A DNA stretch of 64,000 bases from an uncultured Candidatus Saccharibacteria bacterium (GTDB taxonomy: Bacteria > Patescibacteriota > Minisyncoccia > Minisyncoccales > JAGMDC01): positions 128,510 through 192,509 of the forward strand of contig CAZTQA010000001.1 of assembly GCA_964615205.1 (NCBI GenBank), read 5' to 3'. A program made the position numbers and the translations under genes. Shown here one piece after another: positions 45,871 through 59,655 of the stretch. Each line of letters starts with the position of its first letter. Positions within the stretch are counted from its first letter, which is position 1. The notes beneath the pieces are model-generated. The model searched no databases. It was not told the origin of the DNA and worked only from the letters and a program-made list of their open reading frames with translations.

Positions 45871-46158
45871 ATGATTAACAAAAAGGAAGTAGAACACATT
45901 GCCAAATTAGCCAGATTAAAATTAAGTGCGCAGGAGATAAAAGCTATGGAGAAAGAACTTTCTTCGGTTTTGGAGCATTTTAAGTTTCTGAATAAATTAG
46001 ATGTTTCTAAAATAAAGCCCACCAGTCATTTGGTTTCCTTAAAGAACGTTATGAGAGAAGACGAAGCTAGAAAACATTCGGAAGAAAAAGTAGAAAGATT
46101 ATTAAAAGCTATGCCTCAAAGGGAAGGAAGATATCTTAAGGTTAAATCTGTTTTTTAA
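45871..46158 (+). CDS. gatC: Asp/Glu-tRNA amidotransferase subunit C
   Basis: 95 aa; [13 protein letters not shown]...; precedes gatA. Confidence 0.9.
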
Positions 46159-46159
46159 T

Positions 46160-47596
46160 ATGGATATCACTTGTTTAAATATTCAACAAACCCATCAAGG
46201 TTTAATAAAAAAAGAATTTTCTGCTTTAGAATTAGTTAAAGAGTATTTTAAAAAAATTAAGAAAGAAGATAAAATCATACATTCTTTTCTTTTTCTTTGT
46301 GAAGATTCGGCCTTAAATCAAGCTAAGAAAATAGATGAAAAAATTTCCAGAAATGAAAAAATAGGATTGTTATCCGGGATTCCAGCAGCCGTAAAAGATA
46401 ATATAATGGTGGAGGATGTAAAATGTACAGCTGCTTCTAAAATTCTTGAAAACCATATTTCTTTTTATGATGCCACTGTAATCAAGAAGCTTAAAGAACA
46501 GGGAGTGATAATTTTAGGTAAGACAAACTTAGATGAGTTTGCTATGGGTTCTTCCTGTGAGAATTCTGCTTTTGGTCCTACCAGGAATCCCTGTGACACA
46601 ACCAGGGTTCCAGGGGGCTCTTCTGGAGGTTCTGGTGCAGCTGTTGCTTCTGATATGTGTGTTTTCTCTTTAGGATCTGACACGGGCGGGTCTATTCGTT
46701 TGCCGGCTTCTTTTTGCGGAACGGTAGGATTTAAACCAACTTATGGAGCTGTTTCTCGTTACGGTTTAATAGCTTTTGCTTCTTCTTTGGATCAGATTGG
46801 TCCTTTAGCTAAAACCGTTGAAGATGTTCATATTGTTTTTCAAGCCATTTCTGGTAAAGACCCAATGGATTCTACTTCTGTTGAAGTGAAAAAAAATGAA
46901 GATTCTAATTTAAAAATTGAAAATTTAGTTATTGGTGTTCCTAAAGAATATTTTATCAAGGGTATGAATCCCGAAGTTGAGAAATTAATCAGAAAAGCTA
47001 TTAAAAAATATGAGGAAATGGGAACTAAAATTATAGAGATTTCTCTGCCCCATACTGAATATGCTCTACCAGTTTATTATATTATTAGTCCCTCTGAAGC
47101 CAGTGCTAATTTAGCTCGTTTTGACGGAATAAGATACGGAGAGGTAAAATTAAAAAGTAAAAATGAAAAAGGAAAAAGTTTGCTGGATTTTTACCTAGAA
47201 AACAGAGGAGAAGGATTTGGCAAGGAAGTAAAAAGAAGGATTATGCTCGGAACTTACGCTTTATCTTCAGGTTATTACGATGCTTATTATTTGAGAGCTC
47301 AAAAAGTACGAACCTTGATTAAAAATGATTTTGAAAAAGCCTTTCAAAAAGTGAATGCTATTTTGACTCCGGTATCGCCCACCACTGCTTTTAAAATCAA
47401 AGAAAAAACAAAAGATCCTCTCCAAATGTATTTGTCTGACATTTTTACTCTTTCTGTTAATTTAGCTGGATTACCAGCAATATCTGTTCCTTGTGGTAAA
47501 ATAAAGAAACTTCCAGTAGGACTTCAAATTATAGGCAAACATTTTGAAGATAATAAAATTTTAGAAATAGCCAAACTTTATGACAGAAATAAATGA
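46160..47596 (+). CDS. gatA: Asp/Glu-tRNA amidotransferase subunit A
   Basis: Amidase signature ([13 protein letters not shown]...[16 protein letters not shown]). Confidence 0.95.
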
Positions 47597-55899: not shown

Positions 55900-55909
55900 T
55901 TTTCCACTA

Positions 55910-55937
55910 TTGACTTATCTTTTTATTCATTTATAAT
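55910..55937 (+). promoter_or_regulatory. putative promoter of orphan small-ORF cassette (TTGACT-16-TATAAT)
   Basis: Hexamers at 55910-55915 and 55932-55937. GGGAGGA at 55946-55952 lies 8 nt before TTG 55961. Confidence 0.55.
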
Positions 55938-55960
55938 GTATACTTGGGAGGATAGAAATA

Positions 55961-56095
55961 TTGCGGAACGTAACTGGAACACCTGGAGTGGTGAAGGTGG
56001 ATGACGTAATCGATTTTATACCTGGCATAGATGGCGAAAAGCCAGAAATACTCGTCAGGGATGAATCGGTGATCGTAAAACCAGGAACAAGATAG
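55961..56095 (+). CDS. hypothetical 44-aa protein (TTG start), orphan SD-bearing cassette
   Basis: Not in the ORF track (<60 aa). My translation is (M)RNVTGTPGVVKVDDVIDFIPGIDGEKPEILVRDESVIVKPGTR. It has a promoter, an SD and a terminator around it, and is visibly G+C-richer than its flanks. Confidence 0.45.
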   Translation: MRNVTGTPGVVKVDDVIDFIPGIDGEKPEILVRDESVIVKPGTR

Positions 56096-56101
56096 TCTGG
56101 A

Positions 56102-56128
56102 AAAGAGGATTTTATTTTTTTCCTCTTT
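56102..56128 (+). terminator. hairpin terminator after the 44-aa ORF
   Basis: AAAGAGGA-11 nt-TCCTCTTT followed by ctattttttt. Confidence 0.6.
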
Positions 56129-56218
56129 CTATTTTTTTAGCACATTTATTAGTACTTTAATTTTGGTGAAGAGCTCAAATGCCCTTCCTTTTATTTTCAA
56201 AAAAGCTATAATAAAAAT

Positions 56219-56869
56219 ATGAAAAATATCGCTCAATACATTGACCATACCAATATAGAGAAAGGTACTACAGCTCAAGATATTAAAAAAACCTGTCAAG
56301 AAGCTAAAAAATATGGTTTTAGGGGGGTTTGCGTTAATCCTCAATGGGTAAAATTAGTTAAAAAAGAAGTAGAGGGAACTGATATTAAGGTTGTGGTTTT
56401 AATTGATGGACCTATGGGTTTGAGTTCTCATCAAAAAAGATTAAAAATATGCCAAAAAGCAAAGAAAGACGGAGCTGATAATTTAGACATAGTTATGAAT
56501 GTCGTTGATTTAAAATATGAAAGATATAGTAAAATTTTAAAAGATTTAAAGCCTCTTTGTAAAATCCTATCTACTAAAGTTATTATTGGTTCAGGTTATT
56601 TAACTGATGAAGAAATCATTAAAGCGTCTCAATTAGTTAAAAGAGCAGGAGCTAAATGTGTAAAAACAGCTACTTTTAAAGATCCTTTAGAACACAGGGA
56701 GCTGGAAGAAAAATTATATCATTTAAAATTAATGAGAGAAGGAGCACCCGGACTTTTAATTAAAACAGCTGGAAAAATTAAAGATTTATCAGATGTTAAA
56801 AAAGCTATAAAATCTGGTGCAGATATAATCGGCACCAGTTCCGGTGTGAAAATAATGAAAGAATTATGA
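56219..56869 (+). CDS. deoC: deoxyribose-phosphate aldolase
   Basis: [15 protein letters not shown]...GFRGVCVNP...; active-site Lys context [14 protein letters not shown] (56207-56212) ends 6 nt before the ATG. Confidence 0.8.
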
Positions 56870-57699
56870 CTTATATCCCTACAATTGGATTGGAGATACA
56901 TTCCGAGTTAAAAACAGAGTCAAAGATGTTTTGTTCCTGCCTTAATGATCCTAATGAAAAAACGCCTAACATTAATATTTGTCCTATTTGTACAGCTCAT
57001 CCTGGTACTCTTCCGGTGATAAATAAAGAAGCAGTTAAAAAGGTTATCAAAACAGGGTTAGCTCTTAATTGCGAAATTTCTAAACAGTCAAAATTTGATC
57101 GTAAAAACTATTTTTATCCGGATTTGCCAAAAGCATATCAAATCAGCCAGTACGATATGCCTTTATGCCAGAAAGGATTTCTAAAAATTAACAATACGAA
57201 AATAAGGATAACCAGAATACATTTAGAAGAAGATACAGCCCGATTAATCCATCCTTCGGGAAAAGATTACAGCTTGGTTGATTTTAACAGGGCTGGCATT
57301 CCCTTGATGGAGTTAGTAACTGAACCAGATATCCATTCTGCCAGAGAAGCCAGGAAATTTGCTGAAGAATTGCAGTTGATTTTAAGATATTTGGGTGTTT
57401 CCAATGCTGATATGGAAAAAGGGGAGATGAGAGTTGAAGCTAATATTTCTCTAAGCAAAAATGAAAAATTAGGAACAAAAGTAGAAATCAAAAACCTTAA
57501 CTCTTTTCGTTCTGTAGAAAAAGGTATAAACTATGAGATAGGGAGGCAGATAGAGATTTTAGATAAAAAAGAGAAAGTAATCCAAGAAACCAGAGGCTGG
57601 CATGATACTAAACAAATAACTTTCAGCCAAAGAGAAAAGGAAGAAGCCCATGATTATAGATACTTTCCTGAACCAGATTTACCCGTCCTTTGTTTTTAA
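56866..57699 (+). CDS. gatB: Asp/Glu-tRNA amidotransferase subunit B, N-terminal (catalytic cradle) fragment
   Basis: [21 protein letters not shown]..., LEEDTARL, ends ...[14 protein letters not shown] then TAA; 277 aa. Confidence 0.85.
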
Positions 57700-57713
57700 A
57701 AATTAGCTAAAAT

Positions 57714-58349
57714 ATGGATATAGATATAAATAAAATAAAAAATGAAATAGGGGAATTGCCTCAAGCTAGAAGAGAAAGATTTCAAAAAGAATACGGCTTA
57801 ACAGAAGAAGTTGAGGTTTTTATTCGCAACACTGATTTTGGAGAATATTTTGAAAAAGTAATGTCAGAACTAATGAATTGGATTAAAGAGACAGATGAAG
57901 AAAGAGAAACCAATGAAAAAGAGTATTTTAATTTAGCTAAAATTTGCGCTAATTATTTAATTACCGATTTTCAGGGTTTGCTCAAAGGAACTTCTTTTGT
58001 TGAAAAGAATATTTTAATTACTCCTGAGAATTTTGCTGAATTTGTAACCTTAATCTATAAGAAAGAGATTTCTTCTAAGATGGCTAAAGCCATTTTAGAA
58101 GAAATGTTTAAAACAGGGGCTGATCCTTCTCGAATTATTGAAACTAAAGGGATGAAGCAAGTGAGCGATGAGTCAGAAATAGAAATTATTGTTAAAGAAG
58201 TTATTTCTAAGAATGAGAGGGCAGTCGAGGATTATAAGAAAGGAAAAGAAAATGCTTTTCAATTTTTAATTGGCCAGATAATGGCAGCCAGCCACGGCAA
58301 AGCTGTCCCAGAAGTAGTTAGCCAAGTTCTTAAAAAAAACATAAAATAA
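57714..58349 (+). CDS. gatB: Asp/Glu-tRNA amidotransferase subunit B, C-terminal (helical + YqeY-like tail) fragment
   Basis: ELPQARRERFQKEYGLTEE..., FLIGQIMAASHGKA; different frame from the N-terminal fragment; 14-nt gap. Confidence 0.8.
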   Translation: MDIDINKIKNEIGELPQARRERFQKEYGLTEEVEVFIRNTDFGEYFEKVMSELMNWIKETDEERETNEKEYFNLAKICANYLITDFQGLLKGTSFVEKNILITPENFAEFVTLIYKKEISSKMAKAILEEMFKTGADPSRIIETKGMKQVSDESEIEIIVKEVISKNERAVEDYKKGKENAFQFLIGQIMAASHGKAVPEVVSQVLKKNIK

Positions 58350-58443
58350 AAAAATAGGAGGTGGTAAGGATGCAAAAAAAATTTTGTGACGAATTACGAA
58401 AAAAACAAATAATGCAATAGCAGTTTATTTTTTCCGCTGTTTT

Positions 58444-59655
58444 TTATTTTATTAATTCGCCTTTGAGTCCCCAGGGAATGGCGTTTATTACTTTAACTTT
58501 AACAAATTCTCCAATGAGGCTTGATTCTCTTGATTGAAATTTTATGGTTTTATACTCCCTGGTTTTTCCAATTATCCAGCTCTTTCTTTCATATTCTGGC
58601 AAAACCTCTACAATTTTTCCAATATATTTTTTATTGTTCTTCAAAGCAGTTTTCTTTAAAACTTCAGTTAAAGCCTTATCTCTTCTTTGTTTTTCTTTTA
58701 AAGAAACCGTGTCTTTGAGTTTAAAAGCAGCTGTTCCTGGCCGGGGGGAATACTGGGAAATGTAAGCTATGTCAAACTCTATTTCTCTAAATAATTTGAC
58801 AGTGTTTTGAAACTGTTTTTTGGTTTCTCCGGGAAATCCCACGATTACATCAGTAGAAAGGTTTACGTCTGGAATGTTTTTCCGGATTTTTTTAACCAAT
58901 TCCTTATACTTTTTCACAGTATAAGGGCGGTTCATTTTCTTTAAGATTTGATTGTCTCCGGATTGAACAGGCAAGCTAATATAAGGAGTAATTTTTTTGC
59001 CTTGTTTAATGGTTTTAATTAATTCTTGAGAAAAATCTTTAGGATGGCAGGAAATAAACCTTATCCAGAACTTTCCAGGAATTTTGTCTATTTGTTTTAA
59101 AAGCTGGGAAAAGTTTTTCTTATTTGATTTGTATGAATTTACATTTTCTCCTACCAGCCATATTTCTTTGTAATTTTCCTTAACTAAATATTTGATTTCT
59201 TCTAGTATTTCTTTCGCAGGCCTGGAAATTTCTGGGCCTCTAGTATAAGGCACTACGCAGTAAGAACAAAAATTATTGCATCCAATAACTACTGGAATAT
59301 AAACAGAGAATTGACTTTTATATTTAGGCCTTATTTTTGAGTAAGACAGGTCTTTTTTAGGCAGAATATAATTGAATTTATCTTTAAATTTCTTAAAATC
59401 GTATTTTATAATACAGCCGGTTAAAACAGTTTTTGGTTTATAGTTTTTAGTTTTTAGTTTAGTCAGTTGGGGGATTAATCCGTAAACCCTGTCTACGGCT
59501 GACTGTCTAACCGAGCACATATTGACTACAATTAAATCTGCCTCGTCAATTTTTGAGGCAGGAACATATTTCTTTTTTTCTAATTTGGCTGCGATTCTTT
59601 CGCTGTCGGACTTATTCATTTGGCAGCCGAAAGTAATAATCCAGTATTTTTTCAT
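58444..59655 (-). CDS. miaB: radical-SAM methylthiotransferase (MiaB-like)
   Basis: N-terminal FGCQMNKSDSE, radical-SAM CNNFCSYC, C-terminal TRAM-like domain; 403 aa. Confidence 0.8.
   Translation of the reverse strand: MKKYWIITFGCQMNKSDSERIAAKLEKKKYVPASKIDEADLIVVNMCSVRQSAVDRVYGLIPQLTKLKTKNYKPKTVLTGCIIKYDFKKFKDKFNYILPKKDLSYSKIRPKYKSQFSVYIPVVIGCNNFCSYCVVPYTRGPEISRPAKEILEEIKYLVKENYKEIWLVGENVNSYKSNKKNFSQLLKQIDKIPGKFWIRFISCHPKDFSQELIKTIKQGKKITPYISLPVQSGDNQILKKMNRPYTVKKYKELVKKIRKNIPDVNLSTDVIVGFPGETKKQFQNTVKLFREIEFDIAYISQYSPRPGTAAFKLKDTVSLKEKQRRDKALTEVLKKTALKNNKKYIGKIVEVLPEYERKSWIIGKTREYKTIKFQSRESSLIGEFVKVKVINAIPWGLKGELIK

Follow-up and report, generated by a model that had tools for sequence, protein, structure and literature searches.

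The locus considered here raises the question whether a gatB gene that is encoded as two separate open reading frames (ORFs) is broken or still provides a working B subunit of the tRNA-dependent amidotransferase GatCAB. Both ORFs are located in a stretch of 64,000 nt (in the following termed the window, always meant at its full length) on contig CAZTQA010000001.1 (positions 128,510 to 192,509) of an uncultured Candidatus Saccharibacteria bacterium, whose genome (assembly GCA_964615205.1, labelled G000 among the genomes compared; 620,081 bp on 8 contigs) is rated at completeness 100 and contamination 0.1 and contains no second gatB. The findings described below very probably reflect a retained gene fission giving rise to a GatB of two polypeptides; judged from the sequence, the tRNA-binding arm of GatB most likely works as a separate protein. 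Four alternative explanations were weighed, which even in combination are improbable.

The two ORFs (Table 1) are read in different frames (frame 1 for the N-half, frame 3 for the C-half), each of them being intact with its own start and stop codon. The N-half ends with DLPVLCF directly ahead of its TAA, and the C-half starts with MDIDINKIKNEIGELPQARRERFQKEYGL (longer listing of the same start: MDIDINKIKNEIGELPQARRERF). Pfam analysis assigned residues 6-275 of the N-half to GatB_N (PF02934; E 9.5e-117, 389.5 bits vs a cut-off of 23.4) and residues 73-210 of the C-half to GatB_Yqey (PF02637; E 1e-42, 146 bits vs a cut-off of 27). Since PF02637 is the sole Pfam family matched by the C-half at E ≤ 0.001, its best match is not the YqeY family proper (PF09424). 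The 481 positions of the NCBIfam model NF004012 are covered from 4 to 284 by the N-half and from 291 to 478 by the C-half, i.e., no part of GatB is lost across the two halves. The N-half on its own exceeds the cut-offs of NF004012 (453.8 vs 338 bits) and TIGR00133 (389 vs 314.8 bits); the C-half, in which the 14 final residues of the structural cradle precede the helical domain and the YqeY-like tail domain, remains below the NF004012 equivalog cut-off (146.1 vs 338 bits). In an alignment with 24 fused orthologues, the N-half keeps 134 of 136 and the C-half 35 of 36 of the columns whose conservation reaches 90 % or more, the same as in fused genes. What distinguishes the window gatB is that its two parts do not reside on one polypeptide of about 475-500 aa. 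The first-pass annotation had described gatB as two ORFs in different frames, both apparently intact, with the catalytic part parted from the tRNA-binding part; the ORF list, the full profile coverage, the conserved columns and the distribution of GatB_N and GatB_Yqey over the two halves agree with this description in all three respects.

Table 1. Features of the window that belong to, or directly adjoin, the genes for GatCAB
Feature	Position	Strand	Evidence or remark
DeoC/LacD-family aldolase ORF	56219..56869	+	Pfam PF01791, E 8.3e-13; directly 5' of gatB N-half
gatB N-half, 277 aa, complete GatB/GatE catalytic cradle domain	56866..57699	+	PF02934, NF004012
A/T-rich spacer, 14 nt, between gatB halves	57700..57713	+	three-frame read
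gatB C-half, 211 aa, own ATG	57714..58349	+	PF02637, NF004012
gatC, intact	45871..46158	+	TIGR00135, 68.8 bits vs 47.1; match at G000:C1:174383-174655
gatA, glutaminase subunit, intact	46160..47596	+	TIGR00132, 637.7 bits vs 481.1

Between the halves, every reading frame is closed by one stop codon: TAA at 57697-57699 in the frame of the N-half, TAG at 57704-57706 in the second frame and TAA at 57708-57710 in the frame of the C-half. Therefore, no insertion or deletion (indel) of 1-2 nt and no simple frameshift joins the two halves. The N-half stop codon and the spacer together form a block of 17 nt (57697-57713), the exact deletion of which would join F277 to M1 in frame. The earlier statement that a single indel cannot re-fuse the two ORFs thus holds for small indels, but not for this particular deletion. 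Mapped via the fused relative G020, F277 of the N-half corresponds approximately to I280 and M1 of the C-half to D281 of Staphylococcus aureus GatB, for which an excerpt of PMC2811023 gives the domain borders 1-294 (cradle), 295-407 (helical domain) and 412-475 (tail). The break had been assigned exactly to the boundary between cradle and tail; it is indeed close to it, but 14 residues ahead of the boundary at 294/295 as drawn in that excerpt. From the DLP motif of the N-half to the ELP motif of the C-half 4 + 13 = 17 residues are counted, the same number as in ordinary fused orthologues such as that of G039. On this comparison, the fission looks like the insertion of 17 nt with a stop codon beside a Met codon. 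The spacer of the window is homologous to the end of the N-half (N-tail) and early spacer of G006 and also to the 17 nt 5' of the ATG in metagenome locus L059.

Homopolymer runs (tttttaaaaa) are present on both sides of the break, and sequencing depth is low (3-7x) in the compared runs, such that an artefact of sequencing or assembly had to be considered. Six public runs contain the stretch, and the contigs of four of them (X1, X2, X4 and X6) were compared with the window: X1, X2 and X4 each provide one contig across the junction (from 57300 or 57334 to 58100) and X6 a 265-nt contig over 57585-57849, in all cases with 0 other letters and 0 gaps. Moreover, a 17-nt block with stop codons in three frames is unlike a homopolymer miscount, the same architecture recurs in relatives assembled by others, and stand-alone C-halves are found in 13 other database clusters. 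An artefact is thus the least probable of the explanations considered here. The identity of four run-level assemblies, together with the same break in six other species, likewise upholds the first-pass view that the split is no trivial sequencing frameshift.

In these six species (G005, G006, G007, G029, G102 and G186), the same linker is interrupted, both halves being located on one contig. Each of the seven split genomes has its two halves side by side with order and strand preserved, and the C-half invariably starts with ATG, followed in the six closest genomes by a common head (M-[DN]-I-[DN]-I-N-K-I-K including the start). The distance from stop codon to ATG varies from 1 nt (G102) via 4 (G007), 11 (G029), 14 (G000), 33 (G006) and about 110 nt (G005) to 331 nt (G186), and the frame offset between the halves varies as well. 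Three of the split genomes (G005, G006 and G007) belong to the family of the window, G029 and G102 to another one. Among the eight sampled genomes of the window's family, gatB is fused in G001, G002 and G004 and is also fused in G003, there with a 16-residue insert in the linker.

In two of the split species the gap is filled. In case of G186 (locus L040), an ORF for a 104-aa MazG-domain protein (1892-2206; PF03819, E 6.5e-17) is inserted between gatB-N (1029-1889) and gatB-C (2221-2853); this split is an independent, more distant cut of the same linker. In case of G005, the gap (locus L023, 1646-1747, minus strand) consists of a dispersed 102-nt palindromic repeat (48 % vs 34 % GC; folding energy -44.3 kcal/mol). 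It was matched 6 times in G005 and 10 times in G006, and not at all in G000, G003 and G007 at E ≤ 0.01. An Rfam scan found no family for this spacer, which looks like a small mobile repeat. Remnants related to it were observed in the spacer of G006 and, in frame, in the linker of G003.

Stand-alone C-halves of 207-213 aa with the head M[DN][IV][DN][IV][NK][KQ]IK are represented by 13 further clusters at 90 % identity (14 of the 32 fetched clusters share this head, the window's own protein counted). Two of them are named 'hypothetical protein' of a Minisyncoccales or Parcubacteria bacterium in the NCBI records, and the nearest one (P0002) is 88 % identical and 96 % similar to the C-half of the window. 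A metagenome scan with the C-half yielded 77 fused loci out of 80, mostly from more distant relatives, and one uninformative locus (L128). Locus L059 encodes a C-half with 73 % identity, has a spacer like that of the window with in-frame stop codons, and is cut 17 nt 5' of the ATG. A further metagenome locus, L131, contains a fused gatB with one in-frame stop codon in the linker (KKEDI*KIRAEIPELP), which may be an incipient split or an error. When contigs were scanned with P0057 for splits of the G186 type, 79 of 80 were fused and the single split was the known G006 contig. In a sample of 141 genomes of the phylum, 121 had a gatB match; excluding the window, 118 of 120 were open frames of at least 430 aa, and no split was seen outside the order in this sample, two short partial matches lying outside the reading.

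Several candidates were not counted as splits. Fifty-eight genomes of the order with two gatB matches or weak scores were re-scanned and their junctions read; besides the splits described above and the frameshifted gatB of G331 (see below), they represent contig-end fragments (e.g., G343 and G130, both checked) or in-frame insertions and deletions. The many proteins of about 195-225 aa from more distant lineages that occur among the best 150 of 8281 matches of a representative search were left aside, contig-end cuts not being distinguishable among them; of the 23 fetched, 18 have their initial M a few residues ahead of the ELP motif. Two further deviations of gatB concern other regions of the gene. 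In family f59, GatB was matched in two in-frame pieces in 10 of 11 sampled genomes (G065, G121, G152, G178, G201, G221, G239, G255, G269 and G295; one piece in G282), the profile positions of about 355-405, which belong to the helical domain, being absent or not recognisable. In G347 (locus L047), the cradle domain of an otherwise full-length gatB is interrupted by a single in-frame TGA; this codon could be erroneous, recoded or the result of a recent nonsense mutation.

The prevalence of the fused gene among relatives (118/120 of the phylum-sample matches, 77/80 of the metagenome loci) would be in line with a recent pseudogene, i.e., a gatB just broken in the lineage of the window with one or both halves decaying. 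A plain frameshift is seen in G331 (locus L041), where an A9 run of the same linker is affected and no new ATG is present; this probably reflects an error of sequencing or else a lesion of very recent origin. However, the break of the window is common to other genera, neither half contains further stop codons or frameshifts, the conserved columns are kept, and G000 and G006 have the same tail and stop codon despite a saturated rate of synonymous substitution (dS). In addition, the ratio of nonsynonymous to synonymous substitution (dN/dS; Nei-Gojobori method, split-split pairs with usable dS) ranges from 0.08 to 0.22: it amounts to 0.080 (N-half) and 0.091 (C-half) for G005-G006, 0.124 and 0.148 for G029-G102, 0.100 and 0.172 for G005-G007, and 0.110 and 0.216 for G006-G007, with 0.047-0.152 (N) and 0.063-0.263 (C) in fused-fused pairs. 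Both halves are under purifying selection in the split lineages. The branch of the window in the GatB tree (0.28) is ordinary. For the end of the N-half and the spacer, only 16 of 35 positions are identical between G029 and G102 as compared to 86-88 % in coding DNA, and judged by this pair the N-tail and spacer are unconstrained. The combination of fused sister genomes and an elevated dN/dS in one half had been proposed as the sign of a pseudogene; fused sisters were indeed found (G001-G004), but no such elevation in the split-split pairs.

A decaying gatB would also conflict with the gene content of G000. Neither glutaminyl-tRNA synthetase (GlnRS) nor asparaginyl-tRNA synthetase (AsnRS) was found in this genome, the best matches to the glnS model (72.5 bits vs a cut-off of 425.8) and the asnS model (130.8 bits vs 342.6) being to other synthetases. 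Wherever these two synthetases are absent, GatCAB is indispensable. Since gatA and gatC are intact (Table 1) and the genome is rated 100 % complete, GatB is therefore needed, and GatCAB is the only route to Gln-tRNA and Asn-tRNA visible in the sequence of G000. With no alternative route found, a recent pseudogene is very unlikely. The requirement should extend to the C-terminal domains. According to parts of PMC4027206, yeast GatFAB lacking the helical and YqeY domains forms a crystallisable trimer with no measurable activity, and loss of these domains from yeast GatB causes severe respiratory growth defects; in an excerpt of PMC2811023, deletion of the GatB C-terminus is described to abolish tRNA binding. 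By analogy to these systems, in which the C-terminal domains are indispensable, and given the need for GatCAB in G000, the C-half would be expected to act in trans.

A further alternative is recoding, in which ribosomes cross the gap by frameshifting, hopping or readthrough and thereby produce a single, fused GatB. In favour of it, the window junction has a slippery-looking T5A5 run, and in G006 both halves share one frame with TAA and 33 nt in between, such that readthrough would give a fused protein with 12 extra residues. In the window, by contrast, a -1 shift runs into the TAA at 57708-57710 and a +1 shift into the TAG at 57704-57706, and no RNA structure was found around the junction (z +0.63; 146 of 200 shuffles fold as well). 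Furthermore, gap length (1 to 331 nt) and frame offset differ from species to species, a gene or a mobile repeat is located inside some of the gaps, and the ATG at the head of the C-half is the one constant. Recoding is accordingly rated as highly improbable, only the artefact ranking below it. Hopping as in T4 gene 60 was weighed separately and dismissed, since take-off and landing codons match in G006 alone (TTT ahead of the stop codon, TTT ahead of the ATG), neither the window nor G005 showing such a pair.

In case of a retained fission, both halves would be translated from one transcript, with the deoC-like ORF probably being co-transcribed: the 14-nt gap between the halves has no room for signals, and no terminator-like site was found in 55900-58700. 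The ATG of the N-half overlaps the stop codon of the upstream ORF (ATGA). A promoter-like site (55910-55937, 11 of 12 matches) precedes the deoC-like ORF, such sites not being above shuffles in number. The leader of the C-half is A/T-rich, unstructured and devoid of a Shine-Dalgarno (SD) motif. In this respect it is typical of the window, since an SD-like motif at -20 to -4 is missing from 44 of its 53 ORFs with a length of 150 aa or more (start set at the first ATG), and leaders are likewise A/T-rich. Translation of the C-half may thus begin either independently of an SD motif or by reinitiation after termination, 14 nt past the stop codon of the N-half. Just 3' of gatB-C, a strong SD-like motif (aggaggtgg, within 58372-58420) is located 5 nt before the ATG of an ORF of about 16 codons that faces the end of miaB.

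In solved GatCAB, the YqeY-like tail domain binds the D-loop of the tRNA. By the same division of tasks, GatB-N would constitute the cradle with the kinase/transamidase site that binds GatA and GatC, and GatB-C, made up of the helical domain and the YqeY-like tail, would anchor the tRNA D-loop. GatB-C is proposed to dock non-covalently on GatB-N, forming a four-chain GatC-A-B(N)-B(C) enzyme, for which its first 14 residues, being part of the structural cradle, could serve as docking handle. Alternatively, the two products may have divided their labour, with GatB-N, GatA and GatC carrying out transamidation alone or with weak anchoring of the tRNA, and the free C-half acting on tRNA or a synthetase in an independent YqeY-like role rather than as a stable subunit. 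Free-standing YqeY proteins and a YqeY domain on Deinococcus GlnRS, as described in parts of PMC2811023 and PMC1865053, provide precedents; in G186 another gene intervenes between the halves, and the metagenomic protein P0032 (256 aa) joins a GatB C-half to a HicB-like N-terminus (PF05534, E 4.8e-5). On the other hand, yeast GatFAB without the helical and YqeY domains is inactive according to excerpts of PMC4027206, PF02637 is the sole Pfam family recognised on the C-half at E ≤ 0.001, and the C-half retains 35 of the 36 columns conserved in fused GatB. Adjacency, order and strand of the halves are, moreover, constant in all seven split genomes. Divided labour therefore appears quite improbable, even if less so than the other three alternatives.

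As for the history of the two-polypeptide GatB, the deoC-like gene 5' of gatB is conserved in split as well as fused genomes and miaB follows 3' in many of them; split and fused loci are therefore orthologous. In an IQ-TREE phylogeny of 32 concatenated GatB sequences, all six close split sequences fall into a clade of nine together with those of the fused G001, G003 and G004 (ultrafast bootstrap 86, SH-aLRT 75), fused G003 being sister to split G007 (100/98). None of 200 bootstrap trees united the split sequences in a single clade, and three or more changes of state are needed; fission or re-fusion has therefore occurred more than once. G000 and G006 share the tail ...CTTTGTTTTTAA, the stop codon and the start of the spacer. 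This shared junction DNA shows common descent, by which part of the split would be ancient; the shared break is old because dS of the N-half is saturated between G000 and genus g4. The N-tails of G007 and G102 are similar to the linker of the fused G001, which is unusually long. Taken together, the fission may have arisen in a variable, extendable linker and may later have been re-fused or re-split in some lineages.

Several points weigh against a retained, functional fission. The closest fused relatives (G001, G003 and G004) are placed inside the split-bearing clade; a fused GatB is therefore not disfavoured, and the split may be close to neutral instead of beneficial. While gatB is present in 393 of the 401 sampled genomes of the order, the split was detected in at least 7 of the 401, a lower bound that derives from the 150 of 448 matches listed, from the 58 re-scanned genomes and from the 150 best C-half matches. 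For the branch of the window, support for purifying selection comes from the conserved columns and from the 88 % identity and 96 % similarity to P0002 and not from dN/dS, since dS of the N-half is saturated in comparison with most genomes and is above 1 in all pairs for both halves. Among the public runs containing the stretch no RNA run is listed, and translation of the C-half is inferred; association of the halves is, likewise, a prediction. Finally, the junction was compared at the level of run-wise contigs rather than reads, which hides rare variants; X1, X2 and X4 are possibly the source of the assembly, making their agreement only partly independent, and all runs are lake-water metagenomes of one year, which further limits independence.

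If the fission is functional, the conserved supply of the C-terminal domains from a second gene would imply that covalent linkage is not required. The position equivalent to S. aureus 280/281 would then mark a permissive cut site for protein engineering, suited for studying how the tail finds the tRNA D-loop. One may even speculate that the GatB arm is a dissociable fourth subunit and the linker an evolutionary hinge that was cut, filled (MazG gene, mobile palindromic repeat) and re-sealed several times in one clade. In case the free arm binds tRNAGln or tRNAAsn alone, it could hand mischarged tRNA to the amidotransferase or serve non-discriminating synthetases, too, which would represent a natural in-trans version of the tRNA anchor of the transamidosome. 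This further-reaching proposal is considered unlikely at present. On the practical side, annotation pipelines may score gatB as broken in genomes of the Minisyncoccales type, wrongly suggesting that Gln-tRNA and Asn-tRNA synthesis is missing.

Searches of the literature found no bacterial split GatB (supplements were outside the search). The split subunit of Nanoarchaeota is presumably GatE of GatDE, with its halves located far apart in the genome. The present case differs from this archaeal one in concerning a bacterial GatB with adjacent halves. In the portion of PMC3655853 that deals with it, the split Glu-tRNAGln amidotransferase of Nanoarchaeota (NEQ245/NEQ396; Nst1 197/449) is reported to be cut at the 'same site' in two distant species; shared with the window are, on that description, a GatB/GatE-family amidotransferase encoded by two genes, a reduced-genome episymbiont lineage and the conservation of the split. 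The window would thus place a bacterial case beside the nanoarchaeal one, in line with the view that fissions of genes are tolerated, or accumulate, where genomes are ultra-small and symbiont-like.

A tRNA-binding helical/YqeY module outside GatB, as represented by the C-half, is also known from free YqeY and Deinococcus GlnRS-YqeY (excerpts of PMC2811023). With 101.7 bits, the C-half also resembles the GlnRS-YqeY fusion family NF011291 without reaching its cut-off of 681, and it matches chain 2hz7_A at 754-848; unlike YqeY proteins, it is the orthologue of the GatB tail (PF02637), located beside gatB-N and with the GatB-specific conserved columns kept. The engineered yeast GatFAB without helical and YqeY domains (4N0H/4N0I) demonstrates, as far as described in excerpts of PMC4027206, that the cradle alone folds and assembles with GatA and a GatC-like subunit, as GatB-N must, and the N-half aligns to 4n0h_B 13-294; in contrast to this inactive truncated enzyme, the window supplies the missing part from a second gene. 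Canonical single-chain GatB (S. aureus 3IP4/2DF4, Thermotoga maritima 3AL0, Aquifex aeolicus 3H0L) has the same domains in the same order, the same conserved residues and the same gatA/gatC partners, with the N-half aligning to 2df4_B 5-277 and 3al0_B 1-285, and the C-half to 3h0l_B 336-475. Compared to these proteins, the chain of the window is cut at the equivalents of S. aureus 280/281, where a stop codon, 14 nt and a new ATG are inserted. The parts are those of an ordinary GatB; it is the architecture that differs.

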